A stretch of 63,740 bases of DNA, the filler included, from Stramenopiles sp. TOSAG23-6 (Eukaryota): the NCBI GenBank assembly GCA_900128565.1. It is 19 parts of 19 records of this genome, joined end to end, with 100 filler letters (N's around TTAATTAATTAA, not from the genome) between each part and the next. Parts side by side here need not be neighbours in the genome. Positions count along the whole stretch, not along the records: positions 1 to 3,272 come from LT637578.1; positions 3,373 to 6,643 come from LT637579.1; positions 6,744 to 10,014 come from LT637580.1; positions 10,115 to 13,385 come from LT637581.1; positions 13,486 to 16,753 come from LT637582.1; positions 16,854 to 20,119 come from LT637583.1; positions 20,220 to 23,481 come from LT637584.1; positions 23,582 to 26,842 come from LT637585.1; 11 more parts are not named here. One strand, given 5' to 3'. A program made the translations under genes and the position numbers. This document shows positions 910 through 57,792 of this stretch, one piece after another (position 1 is the first letter of the stretch; each line of letters starts with the position of its first letter). Below the pieces are notes generated by a model. It ran no database searches and was not told the origin of the DNA. It saw nothing but the letters and a program-made list of their open reading frames with translations.

Positions 910-2443
910 ATGACTATGACATCTAGATCATCAAAAATAGAAAATAAATATGTTTCTAGAAAGCAGGTAATAAAAGATAGTGAGTATTTGAAATTCTTGC
1001 GTAAAGATTCTCATAGTAAGTTATACCAAAAAGACTTTACAGTAGACTTCCATTGGCGACTCAGAGACAGTCAAGATTTGAAGAGTATTCAAGACAGAAA
1101 TATGGCACTTGATGCCATAGAAATTGGNGAGATGTTAAGTGCAAGTGGTAAATATGAAGAAGCATTACGTGTATTTCGTCATGTAAGAAAAGAAACAGAA
1201 AGAATAAATGATAAAGAAGTCGAGGCNCTGAGCTTGGCAAGTATTTGTAGCACTGGCTTAGCACAGTCTTTGCATCTTATTTCATCTAGACATTCTAGGT
1301 TTGGACAAAGATCTTTCAGAATTGTTGCTAATTCTATTAGTGTATTAAATGAAGCAAATAATATATTTTGTTTGAGTTCAGAAAATATCAAAAATGTACC
1401 AAGATTCCAGCTTTGTGTTGAAGAGTGTAAAAAAATTCAACAACAAATTCGACTGTTCAATGAAGCTAATGACNTATCCAAAGCTGAAAGAAGTGTCAAT
1501 GATATTCCAGAAGGACCATCAATTATGAAAGTGTCAAAATATCCTGATATGTATTCAGGATATATTTATATCCGGCCTGGATTTGGAAATTGTCTNATNA
1601 AAAGTATACAAACAAAATGGTCTAAATTTTGGTGTGAAAAATGTGACAAAGATTCTTCTCTATCTTTATATCAAAATCCAGAAGACTCTATACCAACATT
1701 AGTTATTGCTACAAGAGGCCTNATTGTATCTGGGAANCCAATAATAAATAGAATCGGAAANTCACCAGCTCTAAAAAATAACGATCCAAGGATTTTTAGA
1801 TTGTATGAAAAACGTGTAGGTATGGACTTTGGTACNAANGAATCCGNGAAAAACAGTAAAAAAAATGTAAAAATACAAAGGAATCGAAANAATCAAAGAA
1901 ATCAATTTTCAGCTCTATGTGATACGTACCATGGTGAAGANTTAAAATATTGGCATCTTCGTTGGGTTTTTCGAGCTCCAAATCCTTCNCTTCAAAAACA
2001 ATGGTGTGCAGCGTTATCTTCTTCTAATCAGACTTCATCATCAACATCTATTCAAACTCTACCTCAAGCACCACAAGCACCACAAGGATCAGAAACACAA
2101 AATACCATCAACGATATAAAACATCTAAAACATCTACAAATGCAACAAAATAATGTATGGAAATTATGTACGTTTTCCTTATTGATTTTGTACCTAAACA
2201 AAAAAATTACCTTGAACATTTTGTACCTAATGATTTCTTGTACACCAAAAAAAAATATTTTTTCACAATACATTCTGTCTCTGGAATATTAATGGAGATG
2301 AACTTATTAAACGAGATAATTTTGTTGCATGTTTGTTAGTTAATACTTCAAGATTAGCTCTATCTAGAGCTAAAATCAAAGATTTGCTCAAAGTATCTAA
2401 TACTTATATTACATGGAATGAAGTTTTGACGATTTTTCGGTAA
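910..2443 (+). CDS. PH-domain-like protein with C-terminal EF-hand-like segment; exons 910-2167, 2274-2443
   Basis: YSGYIYIR..WSKFWC..FRAPNP.LQKQWCAAL PH pattern; removing element 2168-2273 gives WKLFCLWNINGDELIKRDNF...IFR*. Confidence 0.65.
2168..2273 (+). mobile_element. Non-canonical introner-like intron (T|GTACGT...ATACAT)
   Basis: Family motifs; excision extends the ORF by 56 codons; duplicated at 45909-46014. Confidence 0.75.
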
Positions 2444-2804
2444 TATCTTTAGGGTAATAGATTAGGGTTAGGGCTTTGATAATATTTTCTATTTCTACAC
2501 AAAAAAAATAAATAGATGTAAAAATGAACTCAGGTCAATAAATATTTTAAAAATGAAAAATCTTAAAACAAATCAATTTATAACGATAACTATTGATTTT
2601 GAGATCTTACTTTTCATTGAAAACACGAAATACTTTTGTTTGTCGTACGTAAAAAGACGAACATCGGGAAAAAAAGAAAAAAAAGTAACGGCAGGGTCAA
2701 AAATCTTATATTTCGTACTCGTCAAAAACTCACATAGAGTAGAAAGAAACTATTTCTTCTTCAAGGTATTTGCCTGCTTGCGTAGTGTATGCTCACTTTT
2801 TAAA

Positions 2805-3272
2805 ATGGGGAAAGATGGGAAACCTCAAGTCAAAAGCCCCAAGAACAACTTTGGTGGATATAAAACCTTTGCTCTTAATGAAGAAGTATCAGAAGACTAT
2901 AAAAAAAGAGCAAATGAACTTGCAGAAAATGTTAGATTGATAAAGGCAAGACTAAAGTTTAAAGCTTTCCGCTCCGCGTGTTTACGTAAAGGTATAGAAC
3001 CAGAAGAACTTTTACCCAAAATTGTGTCTGACTTTCGGACAGATGTCACTATAACTGTACAAGAAGCAAAAATGAGGTACGATATGTTTGAAACTAGACG
3101 CCGACGTCTCATTGGTATTGCATTGAGGGAGACAGATAATAATGATGAAGTAGTAAAGTTAGCTCAAAAGAAACTTGAAGAGAGAGAAAAAATATTACAG
3201 CAACTATTGGGCTCCAAATTAAAAAAAGAGAGATTACAATTGAAAAAAATGAATAAATCACGTCAAAAATAT
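2805..3272 (+). CDS. Coiled-coil protein (3' partial)
   Basis: ORF MGKDGK...ACLRKGIEPEELL. Confidence 0.6.
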
Positions 3273-3372
3273 NNNNNNNNNNNNNNNNNNNNNNNNNNNN
3301 NNNNNNNNNNNNNNNNTTAATTAATTAANNNNNNNNNNNNNNNNNNNNNNNNNNNNNNNNNNNNNNNNNNNN
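3273..3372. other. Artificial contig spacer N44-TTAATTAATTAA-N44 (recurs about every 3.3 kb up to 60497)
   Basis: Identical six-frame stop linker between N runs. Confidence 0.98.
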
Positions 3373-3466
3373 ATATTTCAAAAAAAATCTAAAAAAGTTT
3401 GTTAGGTACAAAATTTCGTACGAAAAATAATTTCGATTTTTTTTTGAAAAAAAAAATAAAACATAC

Positions 3467-6551: not shown

Positions 6552-6743
6552 ATGTATTTTGGAAAAATATTCAAAAAAACAATTAAATTTGTTAGGTACA
6601 AAATTTCGTATGAAAAATAAATTCGATTTTTTTGTAAAAAAAANNNNNNNNNNNNNNNNNNNNNNNNNNNNNNNNNNNNNNNNNNNNTTAATTAATTAAN
6701 NNNNNNNNNNNNNNNNNNNNNNNNNNNNNNNNNNNNNNNNNNN

Positions 6744-7312: not shown

Positions 7313-7412
7313 GTATGTTTTATTTTTTTTCAATTTTTTATCTTAATTTTTTTTTCGTACGAAATTTTGTACCTAACAAATTTTACAAAAAAAATATTTT
7401 TTCACAATACTT

Positions 7413-9880
7413 TGTTTAAAAGCTTTACGTATCCTTTGTAAAGAAGATCAACTTGATGTTTTTACTACGAGGCGTACGTTTTTATTAGTTATTCTTTGTT
7501 AGGTACGAATTTTTGTATGAAATATTATTTTTTTTAGAAAGGTTTTAATAGAATTATGATTTTTTTTTATTGTATCATGAATTTTTTTTTTTTTTGGTAC
7601 AATATTTTTTTTGTACGTAAAGTAAACATCCTAATTTTTTTTTTGGTAAAATATTTTTTTTGTACGTAAATATCCTAATTTTTTTTTGGTAAATACAAAC
7701 ACTAACAATTTGTCTTTCTGTCGCATATGTTTAAATTAATATGTGCCATCCGAAAAACTGGAGCTTTAGGTAGCTCTGAACATAATTTAGTAATTATTGC
7801 TCTTGCTCAGTTATATAGTGAAGCTGCAAATGTGAATGTTGATCCTACTAACCCTAACCCTAATGTGTCTATACAAAAATTAAATAAGAAAAAAAATGAG
7901 GTTTGTGGTGATTTATGGAATTGGACTTATCATTCAAATGCTAATGTACGTACGTTTTATCTTTTTTTTTTACAAAAAAATCGATTTTTTTTTTATAGTA
8001 AATTTTGTACCTAACAAATTATAGTTTTTTTTTTGAAATATTTTTCCAAAATACACGTAGTTCTGCCTTTAATGCACTTGGAAATTTCGCAAATATTTCA
8101 TGCAACAATTTTTTTCTGGTACTCGATGAACAGTATGACAATGATCCAAACTCTAACCCTAACCCTAAACAAAGTGACCCTAACCCTAAAAACCCTAACC
8201 CTAATGTTTTGAATAAAAAGATAAAACGTGAAGATGCATTACAACAAACTCTGTTATGCCTAACCCTAATCAATGAAAGTAGTAACCCTAACCCTAACAG
8301 TAACGGATCTGAAACATTAGTGACGTCACTTTTAAGTACGGAAATTCATAAGAGACGTCGATGGTGTACTCAAAAGACGTTTGGCAATGTTTTGTCTACA
8401 CAATCAAATAAAGTACAGAGCTCAACAAACCCTAACCCTAAGGAAACATCAAATGAAACATCAAATGAAACAAAAGACGACATTCGAAATTCGTTAAGTA
8501 CAAAATTACGTATGAAAAAAAATGTAGCACATGATGATTTTGATACATTACATTTTCTTCCTGACCAAAGTGACCGAAGTTTCATCAGCAGTCGTTTACA
8601 CAAAAAAAAAAAAAGCCCTAACCCTAATGCTAACCGTCCCCTAACCCTAGAGAAAACTGAGAATAATTCTAATAATTGTCAAAAGAAATCGATACAAATG
8701 CAAAACACATTTAACAAATTGCCAGCAAAATCCTTCTTAAAAGACATATTGAAATATTTAGTCAATATTGAAATAAAATTAAAGATCATTCTCAATTGCT
8801 TTGATACAAAAAATACAAAAAATCCAAAAAATCCAAAAAATCCAAAAAATAGTGGGAATGATGACGTCACTCAACAAATTCGAGATATGGGAGGTAACCC
8901 TAACCCTAATGTAGTAGCCACGAATTCTTTAGAATTAATTCATACAAAGCCTCAAGATCCAATTTCAAATATGCTCATGGATGATACTTCTATGAATGAT
9001 GACCATATCAATACATTTGTATCTTTATGTTGTGCAGTAGAAAAAATAATGAGAAGTTTATCAAATTGTACGTTTAAAAAATTCTTTTTTNTACCTAATT
9101 TTATTTTTTTTTTCGTACGAAATGTTGTACCTAACGAATTTTTATTAAAAAAAAAAAAAAAAAAAAATCACAATATATGCCCAGGTTTCCCCCCGTCTAT
9201 TCCTATTGGAATTCTTTTGGAATCTATTCTAAATATTTTTATCAAATTTCGAATAAAATATTCGAAAGATAAAGGTATGAATATGAGAAAAATTGATTTC
9301 AGTCATTTTCACGAATGTGTGGATAAAGCTGAAGCTCAATGTATTTCATTCTGTGTTGCTCATGTATGTTTTTATTTTTTTTGAATTTTGAATTTTTTTG
9401 AATTTATGTTTTTTTTTTCGTACGAAATTTTGTACCTAAGAAATTGAAATTTTTTTTTGAAATATTTTTCCAAAATACATTGCACTCGAAATAATTCTCT
9501 CGCCTCTTTATTATCAAATATTATATCACACTATAACCCTAACCCTAATAATCTTAATGATATTAATGATATTAATGATATTAATACTCTACGATTTAAC
9601 ATATTAGGTATTCATGCAAAAAATGAAATTCTATCGAATATTGATCAAGTTTTAGATTCATTACCAAATAAATCTCACACAAAAATTACAGAAATTTGTA
9701 TTGAATTTGCTATACGAAACACTGGTTCAAAAATTTGGCATGATTTCGTGTCAATATTTATAGAAAGGGTAAGATCTTTGCACGTACGTAGTGAACCAAA
9801 AAAAACAAAAAAATCAAAAAATTCAAAAAATTCAAAAAATTCAAAAGAATCAAAAACGGATGAAATAGTGACTATACCAG
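7413..9880 (+). CDS. Multi-exon helical-repeat-like protein (partial) with NPNP tracts; introns 7474-7724, 7950-8056, 9068-9178, 9364-9480
   Basis: ORFs 7727, 8005 and 9457 join in frame after element removal. Confidence 0.6.
7474..7724 (+). mobile_element. Degenerate/long family intron (C|GTACGT...CGC)
   Basis: This end restores frame (TRH-MFKLI), whereas the nearby CAT end does not; ACTAAC branch-like motif ~7701. Confidence 0.5.
7950..8056 (+). mobile_element. Family intron (C|GTACGT...ATACAC)
   Basis: Restores NANVRSSAFNAL. Confidence 0.7.
9364..9480 (+). mobile_element. Family intron (T|GTATGT...ATACAT)
   Basis: Joins ORFs 8005 and 9457 in frame. Confidence 0.75.
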
Positions 9881-9893
9881 GTATGTGTCCACC

Positions 9894-9926
<33 letters not shown>

Positions 9927-10280: not shown

Positions 10281-10472
10281 CGTTCTGATTCATTCATTTC
10301 AATTTTTAAAAATATTTTTTTTTTCATACGAAATTTCGTACCTAACAAATTTTACAAAAAAAAAATATTTTTTCACAATATGTGTACGTTTTTCAGCATG
10401 AATTTTTTACGTACATTTTTTTTTTTTGGTAGAAAATTTCGTACCTAACGAAACATTTGATTTGAATGTACA

Positions 10473-11077
10473 ATATTCTCCTTTGAACATTTTTACCTGA
10501 AATTGCTGCAAAGTTGTTAGCCATGGGTTTAGATTGCACCGGAATTCTTTCTGGGATGTTAATAACATTATTTAAGAATAATCTGAATGATTCTAATGTA
10601 TTTAGAACTTGGGATTTGATATTTCTTTTTGAAAATAATCCAGTGGTATGTACGTTTTCCTCATGAATTTCGAATTTATTTATTTTCTCATACGAAATTT
10701 TGTACCTGACAATTTTTTTTAGATTTTTTTTGAAATATTTTTCCATAATATATTTGGTTTAGTTTTAACATTCTTTGAAGAAGCAAGTTTTGAAATATTA
10801 TATTCTAATGTAGATATAGAGGCTTGCTTAATGGCACATGTTGAAAAATGGAGAAATGCAGAGGATGTTAGTGCTATTTTAAATAGGGCTCTACTGTACG
10901 TCTTCAAAATTAAGTGTTTCCCTAGATTAGTTTTCATACGAAAATTTGTACCTAACGAATTATTTTCCAAAAAACAAATATATATATATATATTCACATT
11001 ACATTTGGGCGACTCACTTTGATTATAATAACATCAATGCGATTCGACGAACTGCGAAAGGATTTTTTTATTATTAA
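10473..11077 (+). CDS. Rab-GAP TBC-domain-like C-terminal exons; introns 10650-10753 and 10896-11004
   Basis: LITLF..VFRTWDLIFLFENNPVVFGLVLTFF after splicing. Confidence 0.6.
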
Positions 11078-11110: not shown

Positions 11111-13385
11111 TCACTTTTTACCTTTCGATTTAGCAATTTTTCTAAATCTTGCTTTGACACTTTTTTTAATCTTGTCTTTTCTTTTATTCGCTTTTGCATC
11201 TTTTACAGCTTTTTTATGTCTTTTTCTCTCTTCTTTTGACGCATTTTTACACATAAAGTTCAAATTGACAATATTTGTTTTTACTTTATCATTTTCGATT
11301 TCTAAACTTTTGTCGTCTTCAGAATCATTATTATACAAAGTGTCATTAGGGTTAGGGTTTTCTATACTGTTGTCGTCTTCAGAATCATTATTATACAAAG
11401 TGTCATTAGAATTAGATGAACTGGAAGCTAATGACATGCCAAGCATTTTGGCCTTAAATGCAGCAAAATCTTCATCTTGAGCATTTTGGATCTCATTTTC
11501 AATAGTCTCTTCGATCTCGGAAATATTTTCAGCATTTAATTGTCCAATCGCTCCTTTTTTACCAAGTCCAAGTTTTTCTAATTGTTGGTTTACAATATTT
11601 TCTTTACCTCCAGTCACAAGAACTGTCTGAAGATCTTCAGGTCGGAGTCCACTAGCAGCCTCTGCAAGAGAACGAGGTATGTATTTTTGGGAAATATTTC
11701 AAAAAACAAAAAAAATCGTTAGGTATAAAATTCCGTACGAAAACAAAAATATAGATAAAAAATTCAATGATGAAAACATATATATACGTTTGCATAAAAA
11801 CGCGTTCATCAATTTCTCGTGCAGCCATCATATCATCCACAATATCACCTTTTTGAATATTTATGTTTTGTGTCTGTATCTCTAATTGAATGCTTTCTAG
11901 ATGTTGATCAAGTTCATCATCATCACACCCAAACCTTTCATCAATAATGAAATCAAATAATTGCCGGATGGACATTAAATTATTCATTTTTTTCCGAAGA
12001 AAAAAGTCAGTGACATTTTTACAATCCATTCTAAGAAAGTCAAAAGCTCTTGGATGTTCGCCTTCAACAGATTGAGAAACGTCTATAATAAAAGGTTCCT
12101 TGTTATGATATAGCATATGTATTTTGGAAAAATATTTCAAAAAAATCTAAAAAAATTTGTTAGGTACAAAATTGCGTACGAAAAATAAATTCGATTTTTT
12201 TTTTACCGAAAAAAAAAAATAAATAAAACATACATTATACTCACTAAGATCAGCATGTACCAATCCACACACTTGATACATTCTTCTCATAATTTTTACA
12301 ACAGATTGATAACATCTTCTTAATGCACTTTCACTCAATGCGGCATCTTTTAGTCTAGGGGAAGCCCAACCATTTTTACCAAGAAAAGTCATGACAAGCA
12401 CATGATCTCGTAAACGGATTGGCTTTGGACTTGGAATTCCTGCTGAATGAATTCGCTTTAAATTTCGCATTTCTTTCTCTGCCCACATTTTGACCATTTT
12501 TCTAGGATTTTTACGACAATAACCACCTTTATATCGATTGTCACCTTTTACATATTTATCACGATCCTTGAAAACAAGAATAGATGTTTTAAACACCTTG
12601 ACGGCCATGTCATCTTCACCAGATTCTCCACCACCTGTAGCATGATAGACGTTAGCTTCTTTGCCTGTTGAAATACAACCATGAAGTTGCTGAAAACATT
12701 TTGAATTGATAAGATTAAATAGAATTAAACGTGTCCTAGGATCCATCACTTGTTCAGTTGTAGCTCGATCATCGCGTCCAGTGTGACGGACATTTTTTGC
12801 CAAACGGAGTCGATTACCAGTCTCAAATGTATTCATAGCTTTATTAGTAGTATGTTTTGCATCAATCACAGTTTTACGCACAATCGAATTGGTGTTAGAT
12901 TGTATACTATCACCAACGGCAGACGATTTTGTTAGTTTTGTCGAAATGTTTTTTGTACTGTTTCCAACATTTGTGCGCCAAGTACCTTTTGATGATATTG
13001 TTTTATGTTTATTACGAACTGGAGCATCTTCAAAGAAGCTCTGTTCATACTGTCTTTCAGCCTCCTCTTGCAATTTAACAAGATTGGCATCTTTCTCTTC
13101 AGCATCCTTTGCAGAAAATAAGGTTCTAATTTTATTATCTATTTTATCATCAGAACTTTTAGAATTTTTAGAATTTTTAGAATTTTTAGAAATCAGAGGT
13201 TTGGCATTTGGCAAATTTGAAATTGCATTAGAAACACCGAGTTTTGACATTTCATCTTCATCACGAAATCTAAAGAATGGTTCACCACCTTCATCACTAG
13301 AATAATTCATGAAACCATTCGAATCTTCGGACACTTTGCAACCATCAAAAAGTAATGAATCATCTTCTTTACGTAGAATATCAAG
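11111..13385 (-). CDS. RIO1: RIO1 kinase (5' partial); introns 12117-12233 and 11679-11781
   Basis: DRATTEQVMDPRT, STGKEANVY, LVHADLSEYN|MLY, IIDVSQSVE, QTYI|PRSL, basic C-tail. Confidence 0.95.
11679..11781 (-). mobile_element. Family intron with AT 5' end (T|ATATGT...ATACAT)
   Basis: Restores conserved RIO1 YIPRSL. Confidence 0.7.
12117..12233 (-). mobile_element. Family intron (T|GTATGT...ATACAT) in RIO1 catalytic loop
   Basis: Restores HADLSEYNMLY exactly. Confidence 0.9.
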
Positions 13386-13537
13386 NNNNNNNNNNNNNNN
13401 NNNNNNNNNNNNNNNNNNNNNNNNNNNNNTTAATTAATTAANNNNNNNNNNNNNNNNNNNNNNNNNNNNNNNNNNNNNNNNNNNNTGTACCTAACAAATT
13501 TAAGTTTTTTTTTTTGAAATATTTTTCCAAAATACAT

Positions 13538-16753: not shown

Positions 16754-16932
16754 NNNNNNNNNNNNNNNNNNNNNNNNNNNNNNNNNNNNNNNNNNNNTTA
16801 ATTAATTAANNNNNNNNNNNNNNNNNNNNNNNNNNNNNNNNNNNNNNNNNNNNTTTTTTTCAAATTCGATTTTTTTTTATAGTAAATTTTGTACCTAACG
16901 ATTTTTTTTTCAAATATTTTTCTACAATACAT

Positions 16933-17133
16933 ACGCCGTCAAGGATGTTAAGTTTTTTATCATCTAGTGTACCGTCTAAAGCAAAGGAGGAGGTACCCCA
17001 AATTAAGTTATCTGAAGGTATGAAATTATGGAATAGCTTTGAGGCGTGGAGTTCACTTCAATGTAAAGAAGAAATTAGTTCAAACCCTAACCCTAATATA
17101 GATACTGTAATAAATAAAAGCAAGATACATTAA
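16933..17133 (+). CDS. Terminal exon of unknown gene
   Basis: Follows family 3' end ATACAT at 16932. Confidence 0.45.
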   Translation, partial: TPSRMLSFLSSSVPSKAKEEVPQIKLSEGMKLWNSFEAWSSLQCKEEISSNPNPNIDTVINKSKIH

Positions 17134-22664: not shown

Positions 22665-22929
22665 TAAAATCAGGCTTTTACTTGAAATAAACTTTAATAT
22701 TTGGGACTATGACATTGTCCAAAAGAGTGAGAATAAATAATATCAATTGCAATCCTCTTGTTTTCTAATCAATTGAAATTCAAACGGTCCTCAACGGTCT
22801 CTCAACGGTCGCGAATCTGGCGCTGATTAGGGTTAGGGTTAGAATCTTCGATATTAGCTGATCTGATTAAAGGTAGTCATACGTAGAAGTATACCTATAC
22901 GTAGTTGTGTCGCAGAAGAAAGAGGCAAC

Positions 22930-34264: not shown

Positions 34265-35069
<805 letters not shown>

Positions 35070-40240: not shown

Positions 40241-40434
40241 TTATGAGTATTGGCTTAAAACAACAATGTACGTTTTATATGANNNNNNNNNNNNNNNNNN
40301 NNNNNNNNNNNNNNNNNNNNNNNNNNTTAATTAATTAANNNNNNNNNNNNNNNNNNNNNNNNNNNNNNNNNNNNNNNNNNNNTACAAAATTTCGTATGAA
40401 AAAAAACTCGAATTTGAAAAAAAATAAAACATAC

Positions 40435-43420: not shown

Positions 43421-43741
43421 ATGTATTTTGGAAAAATATTTGAAAAAAAAACGTTAGGTACAAAATTTCGTACGAAAAAAAATTCGATTTTTTTGTTAAA
43501 AAAAAAATAAAACATACATGCTGACGATTAGAGTATGTATTCTGGTGAAATACAGTCAATGATGATGACCTACAACGACATGTACAATGTATTTTGGAAA
43601 AATATTTGAAAAAAAATCTAAAAAAATTTGTTAGGTACAAANNNNNNNNNNNNNNNNNNNNNNNNNNNNNNNNNNNNNNNNNNNNTTAATTAATTAANNN
43701 NNNNNNNNNNNNNNNNNNNNNNNNNNNNNNNNNNNNNNNNN

Positions 43742-46700
43742 AGGCCGTACTGGAAGTGGTACTGGACTTCTGAATCTAAAGCTATAAGGTGGAAATCTGT
43801 GTATCAGCTTTGAGATGACTAAGTTTAATGTAATTCTTGTTAGACCAGTCTTGTCGAGAAGTTCAGCCCATCGTGTTTGCTCTTGTGTACTCTGGCAGCT
43901 ATTCGCCATATAATCATGAAATGTCTTACTCAATTCTAACCACAAGGTATCAACATCGTTTTCTTTAAAATAAGCTTCCATTGTACCAGATACACCCATA
44001 GCTAGTGGTTCTGCGTCAGACATGCGCAAATTGGTATGTTTTATCTTCATAAGCTTGTTTAAACCAACTCTCTCGTCAAGCTCAATTACATAGCGTTCAC
44101 TTGACTTGTCAAAACTTTGCACTGTGCCGATTTTACCATTGTGCTGTTTCTGCGACTTTAAACCAACAAACTCAATACGAGAGCCTATTGTATAGCTATC
44201 AGCATTGCTTTCATCGTCACTCTTTGATTCACTCATTGAGCATTAGATTCGATTGTTTCTGTCAGGATTGAAAAGACGAATAAGAGAAACAATATTACAA
44301 CCCAATTCCCACTTTTTAGTAGAGAAAANTTATGTGTAGAATCATAACCATTACCTTGTATACTGTCCTTATACACCAGCAATGCAATTGTCTTACAACT
44401 GAAATTATTNGCAATGTATTCTCTTACTAAGATATACTAGCGCGGCAAGCTGACGAAAAAACGATTTTTTTCGTACGAAAATTTGTACTTAACAAATAAA
44501 TTAAACACGCATATATGCGTGTTTAATCGGTTATTCGTGATAGGTCCTATCGGGTATCTAAATCTCTCAATAATCTGAAATTTTTCTTCGAATCTTTCGA
44601 CAAAATTCGTATCTATTTATTAGCAACATCTCTTACTATTCTTCTCCAGTATGACTATGACATCTAGATCATCAAAAATAGAAAATAAATATGTTTCTAG
44701 AAAGCAGGTAATAAAAGATAGTGAGTATTTGAAATTCTTGCGTAAAGATTCTCATAGTAAGTTATACCAAAAAGACTTTACAGTAGACTTCCATTGGCGA
44801 CTCAGAGACAGTCAAGATTTGAAGAGTATTCAAGACAGAAATATGGCACTTGATGCCATAGAAATTGGNGAGATGTTAAGTGCAAGTGGTAAATATGAAG
44901 AAGCATTACGTGTATTTCGTCATGTAAGAAAAGAAACAGAAAGAATAAATGATAAAGAAGTCGAGGCNCTGAGCTTGGCAAGTATTTGTAGCACTGGCTT
45001 AGCACAGTCTTTGCATCTTATTTCATCTAGACATTCTAGGTTTGGACAAAGATCTTTCAGAATTGTTGCTAATTCTATTAGTGTATTAAATGAAGCAAAT
45101 AATATATTTTGTTTGAGTTCAGAAAATATCAAAAATGTACCAAGATTCCAGCTTTGTGTTGAAGAGTGTAAAAAAATTCAACAACAAATTCGACTGTTCA
45201 ATGAAGCTAATGACNTATCCAAAGCTGAAAGAAGTGTCAATGATATTCCAGAAGGACCATCAATTATGAAAGTGTCAAAATATCCTGATATGTATTCAGG
45301 ATATATTTATATCCGGCCTGGATTTGGAAATTGTCTNATNAAAAGTATACAAACAAAATGGTCTAAATTTTGGTGTGAAAAATGTGACAAAGATTCTTCT
45401 CTATCTTTATATCAAAATCCAGAAGACTCTATACCAACATTAGTTATTGCTACAAGAGGCCTNATTGTATCTGGGAANCCAATAATAAATAGAATCGGAA
45501 ANTCACCAGCTCTAAAAAATAACGATCCAAGGATTTTTAGATTGTATGAAAAACGTGTAGGTATGGACTTTGGTACNAANGAATCCGNGAAAAACAGTAA
45601 AAAAAATGTAAAAATACAAAGGAATCGAAANAATCAAAGAAATCAATTTTCAGCTCTATGTGATACGTACCATGGTGAAGANTTAAAATATTGGCATCTT
45701 CGTTGGGTTTTTCGAGCTCCAAATCCTTCNCTTCAAAAACAATGGTGTGCAGCGTTATCTTCTTCTAATCAGACTTCATCATCAACATCTATTCAAACTC
45801 TACCTCAAGCACCACAAGCACCACAAGGATCAGAAACACAAAATACCATCAACGATATAAAACATCTAAAACATCTACAAATGCAACAAAATAATGTATG
45901 GAAATTATGTACGTTTTCCTTATTGATTTTGTACCTAAACAAAAAAATTACCTTGAACATTTTGTACCTAATGATTTCTTGTACACCAAAAAAAAATATT
46001 TTTTCACAATACATTCTGTCTCTGGAATATTAATGGAGATGAACTTATTAAACGAGATAATTTTGTTGCATGTTTGTTAGTTAATACTTCAAGATTAGCT
46101 CTATCTAGAGCTAAAATCAAAGATTTGCTCAAAGTATCTAATACTTATATTACATGGAATGAAGTTTTGACGATTTTTCGGTAATATCTTTAGGGTAATA
46201 GATTAGGGTTAGGGCTTTGATAATATTTTCTATTTCTACACAAAAAAAATAAATAGATGTAAAAATGAACTCAGGTCAATAAATATTTTAAAAATGAAAA
46301 ATCTTAAAACAAATCAATTTATAACGATAACTATTGATTTTGAGATCTTACTTTTCATTGAAAACACGAAATACTTTTGTTTGTCGTAAAAAGACGAACA
46401 TCGGAAAAAAAGTAACGGCAGCGGTCAAAAATCTTATATTTCGTACTCGTCAAAAACTCACATAGAGTAGAAAGAAACTATTTCTTCTTCAAGGTATTTG
46501 CCTGCTTGCGTAGTGTATGCTCACTTTTTAAAATGGGGAAAGATGGGAAACCTCAAGTCAAAAGCCCCAAGAACAACTTTGGTGGATATAAAACCTTTGC
46601 TCTTAATGAAGAAGTATCAGAAGACTATAAAAAAAGAGCAAATGAACTTGCAGAAAATGTTAGATTGATAAAGGCAAGACTAAAGTTTAAAGCTTTCCGC

Positions 46701-47231: not shown

Positions 47232-47978
47232 ATGTCTAAAATTCGCAAAAGTAAAACAAAACGTTTGAAATTGTCCGCTGCTGCTGTTGCCAATGAAGCG
47301 GCCACAGTAGCGATAACATGTATGCGCTTAACTCAACACGCAGTAGAAATGGCTAAAATGGAACAAAAGAGCATTGATTTAAAAGTTTTAAAGTTGTTGG
47401 CGGAAGCGGACAAAATGGCTAATGATCAACGTAGTGAAGCTGAAAAAAGAGCTGAAGAAAAGAGAGCTGCGGATGTCCTAGCTAAAAAAAAAGGGATTAT
47501 TACAACTAAAGAAAATCTTAAAAAAAGATTACAAATAATTTTGGGGGAAACTCAAGCTAAGTACGATGAACTTTTTATTGCCCGCCAGCAAAGATTAAAC
47601 CGCACGAAGTCTCTCAAAAGATCTACTAAGTTGATGAATCAACTATCAAATGATTTTTTGTGTTTTGTTGTCAAAACTCCAACGGTAAAAGATGGCATGC
47701 TTAAGCATCCATCAAATGATATTACAAATTGTCATAATAATTGTACAAAAATAGCTCATACGAATCAAGAGATATTTCAGAGGCATACAAACAAGTCTCA
47801 GGAAACAGAAACCCTAACCCTAAACAAGTCTCAGGAGACAGAAACGGTAAATAATAGATCGAAACAAATAATAAAAGCAGCTGATAGAAATATGTTGATT
47901 AAGCGTATCCAACAGGAAGTAATCCGTGCTTCTCTTATTTGCAAAACATTTGACGAAACTTCTAGAAAACAAAATTGA
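47232..47978 (+). CDS. Coiled-coil protein
   Basis: 248-aa ORF. Confidence 0.6.
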   Translation: MSKIRKSKTKRLKLSAAAVANEAATVAITCMRLTQHAVEMAKMEQKSIDLKVLKLLAEADKMANDQRSEAEKRAEEKRAADVLAKKKGIITTKENLKKRLQIILGETQAKYDELFIARQQRLNRTKSLKRSTKLMNQLSNDFLCFVVKTPTVKDGMLKHPSNDITNCHNNCTKIAHTNQEIFQRHTNKSQETETLTLNKSQETETVNNRSKQIIKAADRNMLIKRIQQEVIRASLICKTFDETSRKQN

Positions 47979-48193: not shown

Positions 48194-49270
48194 TTAATTC
48201 GTATATTTCTTATCCTTGGAGAATTTAACTTTCTCTGGCAAATTCACAGTTTTAAGAAATTCGTCCAGTTTTTTGTTATATAAATCTGGATCCGTACGTA
48301 AATGTTGAATATGTGGAGAATCTTCAAGAACTACCTCAGTTACGTTTACGCCTGTTTTTTGGGAAAATATTTTTATACGTTTGAAATTTGTTAGTTTTTT
48401 TTTGGGAAATATTTTTTTTTTTTAAATTTAGGGTTAGGGTAAATGTACCCAAATTTTTCCATGACGAACAAACCGACCGGCAATCCTCAATACGAGATAC
48501 AGCATCTGCAGAGCTAAAGTACCATAGTGCTGGTACAGATAAGGGATTATCGTAAAAGATTTTACTTGCTTTTGTGTAGTGCACCCCTGCTGTAGACTTG
48601 GTCAAATGGAGATAAGAATTAATGAAATTATTTATCAGTTTTTCACGAAATCCACCAATACCCATAGACTCTGTAATTCCTGCGGCAATACCATTAATAT
48701 CTGGTGGACTATCAAATACTTGTCCAACGACATTTTTCAATAAAACATCCTTTTTACGTGAAGTCCCGTCTCGTTTTAGAGATCTTAAATATTGCCCAAA
48801 TAAGAATCCCCCAACGGACATGGACACTATAATAGATGATATGTGCAATAGGATAAATGTAATACAAATAAATAAACAATGATCAAATGAAATTATGGAG
48901 AATTATGGTCTTATCTTCACTATATATAGAAAATTACGACTGGCCTTTCACCTTCACCGCTTAACTCTCTGCGAACAGAATTCATGACGCTCTCTATTTT
49001 TCTCTGACCAAGTGAAGGAAATAGCACGTGTAGAGGATTTACCGAATAGCTATACGTATCCACTCCTCGCTCATGCCAAAGACTCAAATACTTCGCCATA
49101 GCCCTGTCTGAAGCACCCATCCAGCCACAAAAGATACAAAGAGGTGGAGGGATATGCTGAACACGAGTACCACCATGCTCAATAAACGTGGCTGCTGCAG
49201 AACGAAGTCCAAGTCTATCAGGATTCGACAACCTCAAAGTTCGTGCAAAACGCATGACACTCTGCATCAT
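48194..49270 (-). CDS. TMEM53/DUF829 alpha-beta hydrolase-like protein; intron 48352-48448 plus an unresolved intron at ~48840-48935
   Basis: IFCGWMGA..KYLSLW, SMSVGG, VFDSPP, YFSSADAV, DSPHIQHLRTDPDLY. Confidence 0.8.
48352..48448 (-). mobile_element. Family intron with canonical ends (G|GTACAT...AACAG)
   Basis: Family-type 3' tail AATATTTTCCCAAAAAACAG; restores LG|VNVTEV. Confidence 0.7.
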
Positions 49271-50355: not shown

Positions 50356-50507
50356 NNNNNNNNNNNNNNNNNNNNNNNNNNNNNNNNNNNNNNNNNNNNT
50401 TAATTAATTAANNNNNNNNNNNNNNNNNNNNNNNNNNNNNNNNNNNNNNNNNNNNGGTACAAAATTTCGTACGAAAAAAATCGAATTTGAAAAAAAATAA
50501 AACATAC

Positions 50508-52642
50508 ATCAAGGAGGTCTCAATGTTATCAAATGCTTCCTTCGCTTCTGCACCTGTGATTTCAACACCTACTCGTACAATCGCCCTCATGAAATCTTGT
50601 AAGTTAAATCGTAAACCCAATTTTTCTGTCTCAACAAATTCTCTTGTATTTCGTCCTTCGTCAATTAATTTCTCAAATTCATCATTTGTGATATCATCTA
50701 AAGGAATATTTGCTACTCTTTCCAAATCTTTTGCTTGTTCGATTTCCTCCTTTGCTTCCTCTAATGAATTTTTGATTTTCTGAAGTTTTGCAGGACCAAA
50801 ATTTTTCTTCTTTGCTACTTTATACCTTTTTTCCCACTTCTCCAAATTTTCTGAGGCAACTTTAAATGCAGCATTTGCGTCACTTCTTCTTGATTCATAA
50901 ATGTTTTCTCGTTGCAAAGTTATTGGATCTGGGACGTGAAAAAGGATATAATACTCAGCAAAAGTACACATATTACATAATACAGTTCGAAGATCATTCT
51001 CTTCAACCCAGTCATGATCCATATCAGTATTAACGAAACCTCTTAACAATCCAGATCGATGTATTTTGCAAAAATATTTCCAAAAAAACTAAAAATATTT
51101 GTTAGGTACAAAATTTACTATGAAAAAAAAAAATTAAAAAAAAAATTCGATTTTTTTGTAAAAAAAAAAATAAAACATACATGATTTAAAATTGACCAAG
51201 TTGACATTAAATGTTTCTCTATTTCTATATATTCGAGACTACCATTATCATCATTATCAATATGTTCCCATAAAGTTCGACGTTCTATTGGATTACTACA
51301 TAATTCTGCAACTTTTTTTTCCACATCTTCAAATTTTGCTAGAAATTTCCTATGTGTTGTAAAAAAATATTTTTTTTTTTCGTAAAAATATTTTTGTTAG
51401 GTATGAAATTTCGTATGAAAAAAAAAAAAAAGAAAAAAAAATGTGTACAACATACATGTCTCTCAGCCTCTTCTTCTGCTAATCGATTTGCTTCATCTCG
51501 AGCTTTTTTTATTGCTTCCTCTCTTAATCTCCGATCTTCCCTTCTCTTCATTTCTAATTCAATTTTCCGCTTTTTTTCCAATTCAATTTTAGCAATTTCT
51601 TCTGCTGTAGGTGGCGGCTTAATATGCATGTATTTTGGAAAAATATTTTGAAAAAAAAATCTAAAAGTTTTTGTTAGGTACAAAATTTCGTACGAAAAAA
51701 AAATCGATTTTTTTGCCATAAATTGTTCTGCTGTAAAATTGTTATATTTGTGTGCATATATTGTAAACTAATATTTCTTTTTCTTGTAATATTTTTGTTA
51801 GGTACAAAATTGACTACAAAAAAGCAATTAAAATAAAAATGAAAATGTACATAATCGAAGGTCTTCATTTGTTTGTTGTTTATTATTTGTCTCCTTCTAT
51901 TAGAGCTTGCTATTGTACTCAAATAATTATTTGTAACAAGATCGTCGGATTTCGTGACTTTAGCTCTAGCCTCTTGTTCATCTTTTTGCATTGCAACGAG
52001 TGCTGTTTCGTATGTATTTTTGGAAAATATTTAAAAAAAATATATCGTTAGGTACAAAATTTTCAATGAAAAAACATTTAAAATTAATTATGGTTAGGGT
52101 TACGTACATTCTATTTTTGCTTCACTATAACTAGGAGGAAATTCATCCCATACCCATACCAAGCCTGTCATCACTGCGTTATCACAATAATGAGGTGTTG
52201 ATATAACTATATGAGAAACCGCTACTTCTTCTGATGATGTCAAGAGTAAATCATAATTTAAACCTTTTCTTTTCCATGGTTTTTTTGTAATTGAGTTTAC
52301 CAAATGTTTTTTCTTGTAATCCCACGGGTGGTTCTCACCTTTTTTCTCTCGCTCTCGAGCCTTCTCATCGGAGACTCTGTCGTATATACCAAAGTGATAC
52401 TTAACTAGTGGTAACTTTTCCGGTAGAGGTGGGAATGGCTTTCTAAGCACAGCTTCGAAATTTGGTTTACTGCAGTGTATAAGCGCATCCGTTTTCCATG
52501 GACCATCATTTACATTTAATACGTTACAGATATCAAATCCGACTCCTTCACAACTACCAGTGTACATAGATACCTTAAAGTACTTGTTAAGTACACACAA
52601 TTGTGTCTCTGGAGCACCGGCTCTTACTGAGAGATGAGCCAT
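50508..52642 (-). CDS. Multi-exon protein with EF-hand (flagellar Ca-binding-like) region; introns 52012-52107, 51756-51850, ~51628-51713, 51352-51455, 51059-51180
   Basis: DNDDNGSLEYIEI, LNH|RSGLLRGF, DHDWVEENDL; complete elements join exons in frame. Confidence 0.65.
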
Positions 52643-53053
52643 TGCCTGAAGAGTATTGCGGAGAAATCAAAATGTGCAGGCCTATTTTGAGAACTCTCTT
52701 TCGTCGTTTCACGAAACGTTTCATATACGTTAATTTTTTTTTTTTAACGGATGTTTCATAGTTTTTTAAAAAAATTAAAATTTTAATTTTTTCTTGTGGA
52801 AGAAAAAACGACATCATAATTATATGGTTCATTCTATTTGAATATTCTATACGTATATATTAGTATGTATAAGTATGCTTGTTTTTGTTACGATACAAGT
52901 TATTCTAAATCATATACCAGTTTGCTGAAATAATTGATCAAAATTGAAAAAGTAAATAATCAGTAATTTATTTTAAAATTTAAGTTTTGCTTGAGAAAAA
53001 ATTTAAATTTTATTTTGGTAAAAAAAAGACGTAAAAAACACGAAAAAACAGAT

Positions 53054-53651
53054 TTATGGTTTTACCCTTTGTTTTGCATTTTTAATATAACGAGCGATAT
53101 TTTTACATTGTTTTTTATGCTTTGGCCAATCCTTTTTTTGGCATTCTGTACTACAATATAAGACTGATTTGCATTTCGAGCATTTATACATTTCTTTTTG
53201 TAAAATCCCACAAAAGTCACAAGGCATTTTTTTTGATTTCGTGTTTTTTGTTTTTTTTGTTTTTTTCGTGTTTTTTGTTTTTTGTTTTTTTGTAGTTTGG
53301 ACACTATTGATCTTATTTGAAGATTTTGAAGGTTTTAGACTAGGTTGATCTCCCTTGCGTCCTGAAGAGATAAGCCAAGAAACAGTTGGATAATTTATGC
53401 TCATTGGTGATAGGGTTGGCAAAAGACCAGCAAGACGTTGAACGAATGGAATTGCCCCTGTAGTATATATTTTGAAAAAATATTTCAAAAAAATCTAAAA
53501 AAATTTGTTAGGTACAAAATTTCCTATAAAAAAAAATCGATTTTTTTGTTAAAAAAAAAAAAGTAAAACATACATCTACCCATACTTGAAGCATACGTTC
53601 AAAATAGACAAATGCTGATTGTTCTTCCCATATCTCTCCCATAACTTGATT
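53054..53651 (-). CDS. MYND zinc-finger protein (5' partial); intron 53465-53573
   Basis: CDFCG..CSKCKSVLYCSTECQKKDWPKHKKQC. Confidence 0.88.
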
Positions 53652-54086
53652 ATGTATTTTGGAAAAATATTTCAAAAAAAATCTTAAAAAATTTGTTAGG
53701 TACAANNNNNNNNNNNNNNNNNNNNNNNNNNNNNNNNNNNNNNNNNNNNTTAATTAATTAANNNNNNNNNNNNNNNNNNNNNNNNNNNNNNNNNNNNNNN
53801 NNNNNACAAATATAAATCAAGTGATTGATGCAGTCCAATTTATCAATCATGTACTTGAAAATTGGAATTCAATGCCAAAAAACAAAAGTAGTAATAAAAC
53901 ATGTATTGCAGTTATAGATAAAAAGAATCTGGCGGAGCAAATGGAACTGCTCTCAGAGTCTTGTGCAAAATTATAGATGCGGAACGGAACTGCTCTCAGA
54001 GTCTTGTGCAAAATTATAGATGGGAAATTTCAGGAAATTTCATTATTTTGAGTCATTGTTTTTTTCAATTTATAAACCAGTTATTA

Positions 54087-54155
54087 TCATGAAACAACTT
54101 TTTTTAGTGTGATTAAAAAACAAAGAGTTGAACCAGGTGGAATATATCCAGGCTG
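54087..54155 (-). CDS. FKBP-type PPIase terminal exon
   Basis: GYIPPGSTLCFLITLKKV* matches the FKBP IPPxxTLxFxxxL C-terminus. Confidence 0.6.
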   Translation of the reverse strand, partial: QPGYIPPGSTLCFLITLKKVVS

Positions 54156-54250
54156 ATGTATTTTGGAAAAATACTTCAAAAAAATATTCGTTAGGTACAA
54201 AATTTCGTACGAAAAATAAATTCGAAATTGGAAAAAAAAATAAAACATAC

Positions 54251-55233
54251 ATCTTTTGGCATATCAGGATGTCTCGCACCATGATCCATTACAAGACCTT
54301 GTACTAGTCGACTATCAAGAGCTTGTTTGTGTACCATGTGCATTCGCTCAATCATGTGCAAATCAATAGGTTCTCCAGGTTTTGTGATGCATAGCACGGC
54401 ATCAGTACAAATTTCTGTCAAATGTGCTGCGAGGTCCGGAGTTAATTTCGTCTTGAGAGATGTCGCTGCCACGTTAATGAGTAATTCCCGATTTTTCAAC
54501 ATGTTTTCTTCTTTTACTTTAAACTTTTCCAAAAATGTGCAAGTTGCTTCCTTTGCAAGCTCAAAGCCGTCGGAGATGATTCGAGGATGAACACCTTCTG
54601 ATATAAATCTCTCAGCTCGCTGCATCAGCTCACCAATGAGTAAAACACATGATGTTGTTCCATCGCCCGTTGAATCGTCTTGCGCAGTCGCTGTACGTGC
54701 AATCATGCACGCAGTTGGGTGCTGTATCTGCATCTCGTGGAGAAGAACGCGACCGTCTTTCGTGATCTTTACCTGTCCTGCACCTCCAACAAGCATCTAT
54801 AATAGGGTATATATAAGCACATTGAATATATAGATAAGTATTTAACACCAATAGATTTCATATAGATATATGTGTGTGTAAAAGGTTAATTGTGTCTTGT
54901 GTCTCTAACAAACACAAAAATAGAATATTTGAAGTGGTAAAAATAATGATGACTTACCTTCAATGTGCCGCGAGGACCCAAGTTTGTTCTGAGAACGTCC
55001 TGTAATCCTCTCCCGGCTGTAACATTAACCATGAGAGCATCGCGTTTTCTCATCGATCTGTGTAATTGAGATAGGAATAAAGTAATAATGGTGAGTAAAT
55101 TTATATACGTGGGTTTAGAAAATAGAAAGAACAAAAGTAGTGCAAGAACAAAGCGTTTTCTACGAAAAACATAGATTAAGTTTTCTTTTATCACTTACTG
55201 TGCATTGGGATTAAGTTGCTGAATCGACGCCAT
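54251..55233 (-). CDS. CCT6: T-complex protein 1 zeta (3' truncated); canonical GT-AG introns 55058-55198 and 54797-54957
   Basis: [34 protein letters not shown]. Confidence 0.95.
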
Positions 55234-55573
55234 GACTAAATTGTTAAAACTCTATATATAATGCGCTAGTCTATTAATTGTGGTATTAGTGTCGCTTTAC
55301 AAGTTGTAAGTAATGCGCTGAAGTAAGAATTCTTCAGACCAGACAGACAGCAGGACTCTTCAAAATGATGCGCAAGACAATCGGCCACTCTCGTGAATGG
55401 CCAACAGGAGTTGAACACCTTAAAAACTTGGAAAACAGGTTTATTCCACGATTTGAGATTTTTCTTCACGCGCGAAATATCAGTTACATACAGTAGAGAC
55501 GTATCTTATCTTTCTTTTTTTTGGTTTTACTATTTTTTGATAGTTAGATTTCTATATTTCACAGCAATATAGT

Positions 55574-56967
55574 ATGAATTCTAACCTTTCTAAAGAAGCG
55601 AACGAAAGGAGGGCGAAACTTGGATTTGGTTCATTGGACGCACTTCCTGATGTATCGCCCCCGAATATTCTTGGACCTGAACCCAATGCGCTTGATGCAG
55701 AAGGACAGTGGTACTGGGTTGCAGATAAAGTTGCTGGCTACGTCGAGGCGTGTCTCCCAGATAACCAAGAAGTAGACCCAGATAAAAGTGAGACAACAGT
55801 ATTAGTCAAAGGGAAGAAAAAAATAGTTGTAGCAACGGGAAAGTTAATAACTCCAGTGACAAAACATAGCCTCACACTCAGAGAGGACTTGGTCTACTTG
55901 GATAATTCTTCACTAGGTACAATGTTGTATAACATTCGTAGTCAATTTCAGAATGGAAATTTTTATACTCGTATTGGAAGATCTACAACAGTATATGTTC
56001 ATGCTAGAAATGGTTCCTTCAATTATAACAGAGTCGCCCGTAAAAAGTATTTTCTTCATCCGTTTACACACGAAATACTACCAGGACATATATTTAATAC
56101 AGCTACGAAAGCATATGAGAGAGCCATCGAGAGTAATCGCGGATATATTTTACAATCAGGATTTTCTGGTATTCGAGATATCAAATATAAGCCAACATCC
56201 ATAGTAGTGTGTGGACCAAAATCATCAGGTGCATGTGAGCAATCCTTAAGAGCACTTCAATTTATATGTGAAATATCAGGAGGAGGAGACAAGGCTGATA
56301 ATCTTCTATCAGCCGTTTCTGTTCTGGACTCGTTGTGCGCTGGAATCAATGAAAATAATGATAATGAATATAGTGCAGCTCTTTCGTATAAAATAAGCTT
56401 AGACTCGTCCGGTAAAGTTTGTGGAGGGGAGATTGATTATTTCGGACTCGAGAGAGAAATTGTCAGCAATTGTTCTTCAAATCGACGAAATTTCAATATA
56501 TTTTACCAAGTTTTGGAAAATTGTCCTTGTGCAGTAAAAAGAAAGTTGAAATTAGCTTCACCGCATGCATTTCGTATACTTCGTAAGTCAAAATATAAAA
56601 CCAGCAAAGAAAGAAATGATAAAACTGACTTTCAGGTTGGATTTCTTAAATGTCTTTTGTCAGTTGTAAAACTTGATGTTGATGCCATGACTTCCATTTA
56701 TACAGTAGTTGCAGCTATCTTACATTTGACTAATATAGAGTTTTATATAGATGAAAAAAGCAATGTTCAATGCAGTGAAGAATTACTAAACACGACAGCA
56801 TCCATTTTTGAAACTTCTCCAGATGAGTTCAAGACCATATTAATTGGAAATTACAAAACAAAAAATGATGTAGAAAAATATCGAGATATTCTCGCAAATC
56901 ATTTGTACTGCCGCATGGTTAATAAAATTGTTACATTGACTAATGCTGCGATAAAAGCTCCAAGCAG
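55574..56967 (+). CDS. Divergent myosin head protein (3' partial)
   Basis: EDLVYLD..LYNIRSQF..FYTRIG, PGHIF, RRNFNIFYQV, VAAILHLTNIEF, RDILANHLY. Confidence 0.85.
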
Positions 56968-57792
56968 GTATGTTTTATTTTTTTAATTTCGAATTTATGT
57001 TTTTTTCGTACGAAATTTTGTACCTAACGATTTTTTTTTGAAATATTTTTCCAANNNNNNNNNNNNNNNNNNNNNNNNNNNNNNNNNNNNNNNNNNNNTT
57101 AATTAATTAANNNNNNNNNNNNNNNNNNNNNNNNNNNNNNNNNNNNNNNNNNNNTCATACGAAATTTTATACCTAACGATTTTTTTTTTGAAATATTTTT
57201 TCCCAAAGAATATTTATTCAAGTATACTTGTGGATATTTCACGATTCGTCGGGAATGACATCGGTTGGGACAGTGGCATTTTATGAAAACTTGATTTGAA
57301 ACATTATTTGATCGGACAATGATGACATTGATGTTGAAGTCATCTTCAAAATGTTTCTTTTTGAAATGATATTTTTACAACACTATACTTGTATTTATGT
57401 GTACCCGTTTATATTCCGTACCATTTTTTTGTACTTATTTTTTTTAGGTATGAAAAAATGGTACGGAATCCAAAGATACGTCGAACACTGTGTATACTTA
57501 GTATTACGCGCGACTAGGCGTTTGTCTGTAAATTGCAGGTTGATTTTGTTTCCAGAAGAGAATGAACGAATGAATGCAATGAATGTTGTGCATTTTTGTT
57601 TAAGTAGAAAAAAATGGTAGGAGTTCGTGAACCTACTCAAAAAAAACACTCAAAAATAAAGGAGAGCAAAGAAGAATGAATAATTATTGTAATGTTACCG
57701 AGTCGATTTTTATTATTCTACATTCTATAAAAGTGCAAATATCCAGTGATATATTATAACAACATATGTCACACATAGTACAACATTGTAGG

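Follow-up and report, generated by a model that had tools for sequence, protein, structure and literature searches.

A family of putative MITE-like introners with non-AG 3' ends in contigs of Stramenopiles sp. TOSAG23-6

We describe a family of short repeats that interrupt protein-coding exons in the genome of Stramenopiles sp. TOSAG23-6 (assembly GCA_900128565.1) and that have to be removed exactly for the host genes to be read. The window, that is the whole stretch of 63,740 bases that was analysed, joins 19 contigs of 3,243-3,272 bases each, ordered by length, through spacers of the form N44-TTAATTAATTAA-N44, and represents several loci rather than one. It holds 26 complete members of the family with lengths of 89-147 nt. 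They lie in sense orientation to their host genes, share nearly uniform ends that never include a terminal AG, and are in most cases bracketed by a 2-base direct repeat. Judged from their sequence, they are likely (at a probability of about 0.72) to be introners resembling miniature inverted-repeat transposable elements (MITEs), which the spliceosome would remove at a 3' site other than AG.

The contigs sample unrelated parts of the genome, except for contigs 16 and 13, which are neighbours. Contig 1 (1-3272) duplicates contig 14 (43742-47000) with 99.5% identity; once this duplicate is set aside, ~58 kb of unique sequence remain. The GC content of the window is ~30%, and the standard genetic code yields long open frames. 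The host appears to belong to a heterotrophic marine stramenopile lineage. For the one protein tried, CCT zeta, the nearest relatives other than the host's own sequence are from oomycetes: after the public model P0001 (97%), the next best named matches of the CCT-zeta exon were oomycete proteins with 63-65% identity. Five RNA and eight DNA sequencing runs hold parts of 50456-57054 and were not used as evidence.

A diverged repeat family with uniform ends

The family was quantified in two ways. The core TACGAAATTTTGTACCTAAC, used as a 20-base query with up to three mismatches, gave 41 matches compared to 0.02 expected, a number that was reached in none of 100 shuffles. An nhmmer profile (E<=0.01), built from the 27 copies that a first-pass annotation of this DNA had listed as complete, matched 50 sites spread over the 19 contigs. 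Of these, 48 are unique and two fall into the duplicated contig. The annotation had located ~40 copies or fragments of a single element and had proposed a profile-based count; both the core search and this count, run within the window, bear out the element at the positions given for it. In the contigs sampled, the density amounts to ~0.8 copies per kb. Moreover, 11 of the 38 contig ends fall within a copy, as expected when a high-copy repeat breaks an assembly.

All 27 listed intervals have the ends described for them, but only 26 were retained as members. The interval 48352-48448 (minus strand) was rejected, since the profile misses it even though it had been part of the seed alignment, and since its ends are GT and AG. 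It is a canonical intron of a DUF829 gene, gg/GTACAT...ACAG/ (slashes mark boundaries here and below), with CTAAC 39 nt from its end. The annotation had also called the copies near-identical, which does not hold: global pairwise identity among the 27 listed copies has a median of 64% and a maximum of 88%, and the median identity to the nearest neighbour is 75%. Conservation is concentrated in three blocks separated by variable A/T runs, namely the 5' end GTAYGTTTT, the core TTTTC(R)TACGAAATTTTGTACCTAAC and the 3' end GAAATATTTTT(C)CAAAATACAT. As originally described, every complete copy is sense to its host gene, and the only antisense matches are short core fragments. All three intron phases likewise occur (14/8/5 for the 27 listed copies).

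We also looked for the family outside of the known contigs. The core pattern was found at 13 loci of metagenome contigs, none of which is a whole element: the profile matched 12 of them in the core only and did not match the remaining one (L010). The best of these core-only loci scored 20.7 bits over profile positions 37-70, and two loci that were read through look unrelated. The viral contigs scanned for the core pattern gave no match, and an Rfam scan of the window matched no family.

The ends of the members are strikingly regular. Twenty-four of the 26 start with GT, most frequently as GTATGT (11) or GTACGT (9), while 25 end with AT and one with AC. None ends with AG, in line with the earlier statement that nearly all copies lack it (26 of the 27 listed copies, 26 of 26 members). 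In 23 of the 26 members, the dinucleotide directly upstream is identical to the terminal dinucleotide (AT/AT in 22, AC/AC in one); the remaining three have CT or TT upstream of an AT end. Across 32 upstream flanks only positions -2 (A, 28/32) and -1 (T, 28/32) show a constraint, and the downstream flank shows none. The element is thus flanked on each side by one copy of a 2-base direct repeat; excision keeps one of the two. This repeat looks like a target-site duplication of the kind known from introners.

Because the 2-base repeat brackets the element, excision as GT...AT, as TG...CA or as AT...AC leaves the same product. The description of the family as GT...AT introns was therefore correct with respect to the ends, but it names one of three equivalent registers and had missed the AT repeat; the label is a convention that does not fix the register. 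Where the repeat is perfect, as in 22 copies, the mRNA alone cannot tell the registers apart. Uniformity of the ends is highest in the GT...AT register (GT in 24/26, AT in 25/26), in which the cut also falls at a perfect GUAUGU or GUACGU and the 3' site is YAU rather than YAG. The AT...AC register would yield the terminal A-C pair that is typical of AT-AC introns, together with the poor donor AUGUAY. If the repeat is counted in, the ends form a short inverted repeat, ATGTAT...ATACAT.

The conserved blocks coincide with splice signals. Downstream of the GUAYGU-like start, the distance between the motif CCTAAC and the 3' boundary is 32-49 nt, with a median of 42, and a T-rich tract comes after the motif. 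The combination of donor and branch motif noted in the first pass is borne out by the sequence. No AG occurs between CCTAAC and the boundary in 14 of 27 copies. Ordinary introns of this genome are GT...AG, as exemplified by a canonical intron in the CCT-zeta gene (AAG/GTAAGT...TATAG/). RNA folding of 27 copies revealed no unusual stability (mean z-score -0.43). A terminal stem was present in the minimum-energy fold of 9/27 copies, with duplex energies of 0 to -7 kcal/mol, which rules out a stable RNA fold or a strong terminal hairpin as a common property. A hairpin in the palindromic core GTACGAAATTTTGTAC was discarded as well, since by eye it is not kept in the TAGTAAATTTTGTAC variants.

Need for exact removal from host genes

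Exact removal of the copies restores conserved proteins at 11 junctions that could be judged by homology, located in the genes for RIO1, centrin and an MRG-domain protein and in a gene of at least 1510 codons. For the whole set, the best open frames agree across the copy in 23 of 27 cases compared to nine expected by chance. Three of the four exceptions can be explained, by the 6-codon end of the centrin gene, by the acceptor of a composite intron (see below) and by a 23-codon terminal stretch. Retention would break 25 of 27 reading frames, 17 through an in-frame stop codon and eight through a frameshift; two copies could be read through.

In RIO1 (minus strand), the exon upstream of the copy at 12117-12233 matches positions 1-135 of the Pfam RIO1 family up to its last residue, and the next exon matches positions 136-185 from its first residue on. 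The second intron of this gene is the copy at 11679-11781 (minus), recognised by its ends at/ATATGT...ACAT/. In the centrin gene, removing the copies at 34542-34688 (FDDD/ETGK) and 34287-34392 (IM/KKTSLY-stop), both on the minus strand and assigned by homology, results in 166 aa that align gap-free to centrins, as far as their C-termini, with 95-96% identity. If this stretch is read unspliced, the match is lost past residue 110. The copy at 33240-33328 (minus) interrupts the MRG-domain gene, where it was placed by Pfam and by the structure 2f5j_A in the PDB. Residues 68-129 of this structure are matched by the upstream exon. The downstream exon, starting with its residue 10, has a weak match to 140-172 (E about 1); the offsets are contiguous. 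The earlier claim that removal restores essential proteins is thus supported by homology for RIO1, centrin and MRG. It fell short for the fourth example, AAR2, because no Pfam match to this family was obtained among the 30 exon pieces scanned.

The most extensive case is a gene of at least 1510 residues, adjacent parts of which are found at 40383-43641 (minus) on contig 13 and at 50456-52666 (minus) on contig 16. A full-library search with its exon 50510-51058 yielded one homologue, P0241 (eukprot g5999.t1, 1543 aa). With the copies removed, the 1510-aa model contains no stop codon and gives a single alignment to residues 1-1530 of P0241 with 51% identity, in which 7/7 junctions are gap-free. 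This alignment covers the minus-strand copies at 52012-52107 (KIE/YE), 51756-51850 (FDY/AHK), 51352-51455 (ERH/RKF), 51059-51180 (LNH/RSG) and 40569-40681 (KATY/IVSN). A Pfam scan of the five contig-16 exon pieces of this gene, with the contig-13 part left out, found no family.

Contigs 16 and 13 are broken inside a copy. Its 5' part (50456-50507, minus, at/GTATGT) and its 3' part (43587-43641, minus) are each cut by a contig end and were identified with the profile. A 69-nt non-coding spacer (43518-43586, minus) separates the 3' part from a second, complete copy at 43421-43517 (minus). We interpret the copy, the 69 bases and the second copy as one composite intron, for which 50456-50507 would supply the donor, as the alignment indicates, and the 3' end of 43421-43517 the acceptor (ETSLM/VEDY, by alignment).

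The same gene holds a 5'-truncated copy at 51630-51713 (minus) that is absent from P0241. It comprises 84 nt without a GT start, in frame and free of stop codons. This copy is probably an exonized remnant that is now translated as a 28-residue insertion, because its in-frame and stop-free state would be needless if it were still spliced; the alternative is an intron without GT. That a copy lacking GT can be translated would fit a requirement for a GT donor.

The effect on gene prediction can be seen for CCT zeta (54194-55233, minus). The public model P0001 (eukprot, GSMAST32.ASY1.ANO1.875.1) runs into the copy at 54156-54250 and terminates inside it, and it skips seven residues (VAATSLK) encoded by the open frame. 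The stop within the copy shows that GT-AG gene prediction fails at this site, and only that.

Further copies, fragments and neighbouring features

The remaining complete copies on the plus strand were recognised by their ends. The perfect AT repeat is found at 2168-2273 (at/GTACGT...ACAT/; also supported by the profile and frame-compatible), 9364-9480 and 27123-27229 (both at/GTATGT...ACAT/), 10650-10753 (at/GTACGT...ATAT/), 19114-19206 (at/GTACGT...ACAT/) and 36628-36748 (at/GTAGGG...GTAT/; ends and profile). The first of these occurs again in the duplicate contig 14 (45909-46014, plus, by profile), and the copy at 19114-19206, with its 93 nt, is one for which in-frame read-through is possible. 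The copy at 7950-8056 has AC both upstream and at its 3' end, the repeat being changed on both sides together. Deviating upstream dinucleotides were observed at 9068-9178 (tt/GTACGT...ATAT/, an imperfect repeat), 10896-11004 (ct/GTACGT...ACAT/) and 19378-19478 (ct/GAATGT...ATAT/). The copy at 10896-11004 is followed by the 23-codon open stretch, which is probably the last exon. On the minus strand, two complete copies reside in a Tudor-domain gene (28337-28442 and 28587-28690; ends and Pfam), one lies upstream of a zf-MYND exon (53465-53573; ends and Pfam), one follows the CCT-zeta exon (54156-54250; ends and homology) and one was assigned by its ends (38762-38885).

Additional matches were obtained with the profile. 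A tandem pair (10306-10380 and 10384-10475, plus; together 10306-10475) is located in a RabGAP-TBC gene. A full-length match at 7313-7410 (plus) has aa upstream and ends with ..AATAC/tt, its exact boundary being uncertain. Several copies are cut by contig borders. On the minus strand, 5' parts with at/GTATGT remain at 3373-3466 and 40383-40434, and 3' parts at 6552-6643 and 53652-53705. On the plus strand, 3' parts begin the contigs at 13486-13537, 16854-16932, 26943-26992 and 57155-57206, and a 5' part at 56968-57054 follows a myosin-like exon, with AG instead of AT as upstream dinucleotide.

Five profile matches comprise the core only. One is found between divergent open reading frames (ORFs) at 724-761 (plus; duplicated at 44465-44502), one immediately 3' of a minus-strand ORF at 30966-31014 (minus) and one downstream of the MRG gene at 33006-33045 (minus). 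These three read TTTTC(R)TACGAAATTTTGTAC.TAAC and lack both ends of the element. They are positioned between divergent ORFs or right past stop codons, sense to the upstream gene, and could represent copies in decay or else a motif that serves a separate purpose. The other two are antisense, at 8487-8533 (minus) in a long low-complexity ORF and at 7495-7524 (minus) in a probable intron. The latter intron (7474-7700, plus) lies between two copies; it starts with GTACGTTTTT, holds the inverted core fragment and has CACTAAC near its ...TAATAT/ end. It was not recovered as a full member.

Two further observations concern short sequences within or close to coding regions. Pairs of a telomere-like unit, CCCTAACCCTAA, mostly preceded by AA, occur 25 times across the window with up to one mismatch, compared to 0.12 expected (for example at 7852-7863, 8157-8204, 11346-11357, 17085-17096, 22827-22838 and 47812-47823). 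Many of these pairs are inside ORFs, where they read NPNP or TLTL. Two are found just past intron 5' ends, in the copy at 52012-52107 (with one mismatch) and in the canonical intron at 48352-48448. The pairs look like a second kind of short in-frame insertion. In addition, the coding strand of a single-exon mitochondrial-carrier ORF (31964-32854, plus) contains GGTACGAAATTTTGTAC (GTKFCT) at 32667-32700, which agrees over 17 bases with the element's near-palindromic core. This match may be due to chance, a footprint or an exonized fragment.

Possible mechanisms and comparison with known systems

The following sequence of events would account for these features. A short non-autonomous MITE-like element would insert into coding exons at a 2-base target, nearly always AT, and duplicate this target. 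It would bring along its own U2-type signals, that is GUAYGU starting at its first base, the branch block UUUUGUACCUAAC and a U-rich tract of 32-49 nt that extends to the 3' end. The major spliceosome would then remove the element together with exactly one copy of AT, restoring the reading frame present before insertion. With AT in place of AG as the repeat, the sequence cut out would end with YAU (as GU...AU) or with YAC (as AU...AC). A more specific version assumes one major spliceosome with two 3' rules, the ancestral YAG for ordinary introns and a non-AG site set by the element for the transposon-born ones (YAU after GUAYGU); we put this forward tentatively, as somewhat less than an even bet.

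A number of points weigh against this explanation. For the known major spliceosome, YAU as 3' end or AUGUAY as 5' end makes an unfavourable substrate. The designation as MITE rests mainly on the direct repeat, because the terminal inverted repeat GTAT(G)TTTT / AAAATAC is short (~4-9 bp) and pairs weakly. For the direct repeat itself, the AC/AC copy at 7950-8056 is the only one to distinguish a duplication from an invariant part of the element together with a target preference, and the copy at 7313-7410 is without a direct repeat. The divergence of the copies (median identity 64%) implies that any burst was not recent, and neither an autonomous partner nor an empty site was seen. Beyond the copy at 54156-54250, the 350 nt that should continue the CCT gene received 0 of 192 high-scoring segment pairs from 119 homologues, which leaves a chimeric contig, joined at the repeat, or a longer composite intron as explanations. 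Finally, searches with CCT zeta, centrin and the myosin-like exon found no transcript-derived protein assignable to this species: the best matches other than the host itself reached 65% for CCT zeta over the part compared and 90-96% for the highly conserved centrin (the centrin matches not being assignable to this species), and the myosin-like exon had no match at E<=1e-10.

Among the alternatives, processing by a minor (U12-type) spliceosome with drifted small nuclear RNAs (snRNAs), like the transposon-driven expansion proposed for Physarum, seems unlikely to us, yet it has more in its favour than the others. The minor spliceosome tolerates non-AG ends, and AT...AC is one of the three equivalent registers. 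The only difference between the start GTATGTTTT and the Physarum variant GTATCTTT is at +5, and the motifs GTACCTAAC and TTCCTTAAC share CCT.AAC. The drifted snRNAs would have to pair with GUAYGUUUU and GUACCUAAC, however, and GTAYGT is a good donor of the U1/U6 type. A 5' end of the form RTATCC is found in none of the 26 members, which start with GTATGTTTT or GTACGTTTT, nine of them with GTACGT, and membership in the U12 class was rejected because of this donor. For the branch site, the motif to be expected is TTCCTTRAC near the 3' site, and the branch-like motif observed is GTACCTAAC at 32-49 nt from the 3' end instead of 10-12 nt. The Physarum preprint allows a U12 branch motif up to ~45 nt from the 3' site, and 10-12 nt is the distance that it reports for Physarum (10.1101/2020.10.12.336362).

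Excision from the RNA without a spliceosome, guided by pairing of the ends as discussed for euglenid introns and the introners of Amoebophrya, is less probable still. The ends ATGTAT...ATACAT would place the two cut sites opposite each other, and non-canonical borders that overlap a direct repeat are also seen in Amoebophrya (PMC7789003). The pairing is nevertheless short and weak, considering the duplex energies, the nine folds with a stem and the mean z-score given above. A route based on structure alone would have no need of a textbook donor, a branch-type motif or a U-rich tract, which are the blocks with the highest conservation here. We regard removal at the DNA level, as for internal eliminated sequences, or residence of the elements in silent pseudogene or germline-like copies, as improbable to a higher degree; in both cases the mRNA would never hold the elements. 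The 2-base repeat does bound the excision with one copy kept, and the TA-bounded eliminated sequences of ciliates are formally alike. Here, by contrast, the repeat is AT and not TA, the elements carry signals of the spliceosomal type, the genetic code is standard and the relatives of CCT zeta are oomycetes instead of ciliates. In every gene checked, the exons on both sides are intact and conserved, so pseudogenes would not hold as an explanation, and independent seawater DNA runs hold at most 55% of the sampled words of the searched stretch (by word match only). An artefact of whole-genome amplification or assembly is the least credible of all. In its favour are the shortness of the contigs, the location of 11 of 38 ends in copies and the seemingly chimeric or incomplete state of at least one contig at a copy, but an artefact would not generate 26 diverged, sense-oriented, AT-flanked copies whose exact removal restores conserved proteins. 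Taken together, we favour removal of a MITE-like introner family by the spliceosome, with spread by transposition as the presumed origin of the copies. The interpretation given in the first-pass annotation, a mobile intron family spliced at an AG-independent 3' site, is thus supported in part.

If confirmed by RNA, this would represent a very dense intron invasion, as the family provides most introns in the genes modelled. Should the version with two 3' rules hold, thousands or tens of thousands of such introns would be possible at the density observed, and the organism would offer a natural system in which the choice of the 3' site is independent of AG and in which a 2-nt AT duplication suffices to produce a working intron. 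Confirmation by RNA would also make this a clean case of introns made by a transposon, with the element as the source of donor and branch site and the duplication as the source of a non-AG acceptor. Since GT-AG models are truncated at the elements, the proteins catalogued for this organism and the functions deduced from them probably suffer from systematic gaps, and the copies additionally fragment the assembly.

The literature searched, without supplementary files, contained no report of introners in the host lineage. In the main text of a study on single-cell genomes of such lineages (PMC5778133), the words 'splice', 'repeat' and 'canonical' do not occur. Large introner surveys start from annotated introns and discard non-canonical families unless these are supported by transcripts (PMC12130899). 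Given this design, a family like the present one would be missed in an assembly without RNA data.

Introners are present in many copies and generate a target duplication between short inverted termini, the element contributing one splice site and the duplication the other (PMC11282704). Those of Micromonas pusilla and Aureococcus anophagefferens are likewise short, non-autonomous, multicopy and genic, and their removal restores the coding sequence (PMC11282704, PMC7789003). They are GT/GC...AG introns, and in Micromonas the 3' AG stems from a 3-nt duplication, in contrast to the 2-nt AT and the complete lack of AG (0/26) described here. Compared to both, the inverted termini of the present family are very short. 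Closer in appearance are the introners of Amoebophrya, which are also repeated and non-canonical, with borders made ambiguous by a repeat and with complementary ends, and on which gene predictors fail (PMC7789003). They possess inverted repeats of 8-20 nt forming hairpins and variable direct repeats of 3-5 nt, share no common dinucleotide signature and come from an organism in which U1 snRNA was undetected. The present family differs in its uniform ends, GUAYGU, CCUAAC, weak pairing and the GT-AG introns alongside, and thus lacks the features by which the Amoebophrya type is recognised.

In Fritillaria borealis, introns derived from MITEs, with duplications and inverted termini, have AG-AC or AG-AT borders and are handled by an adapted major spliceosome (PMC11282704). 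Their 5' end is not GT and their borders are diverse, whereas GTAYGT is found in 20/26 members here. The U12-type introns of Physarum polycephalum resemble the present ones in the origin proposed for them, a DNA element that has inverted termini and a 2-nt (TA) repeat, and in the occurrence of GT-AT borders; their donor is RTATCYTT and their branch motif TTTGA lies 10-12 nt from the 3' site, as opposed to GTAYGTTTT and 32-49 nt (10.1101/2020.10.12.336362). The nonconventional introns of euglenids share non-canonical borders, duplication-like repeats, a suspected MITE origin and the coexistence with conventional introns. They are distinguished by a stable terminal stem and the absence of a polypyrimidine tract (PMC11282704), and the present copies instead show no stable fold and a T-rich tract. 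The combination of uniform non-AG ends, a 2-nt AT repeat and a donor and branch motif of the canonical type, without a strong hairpin, sets this family apart from all systems compared.

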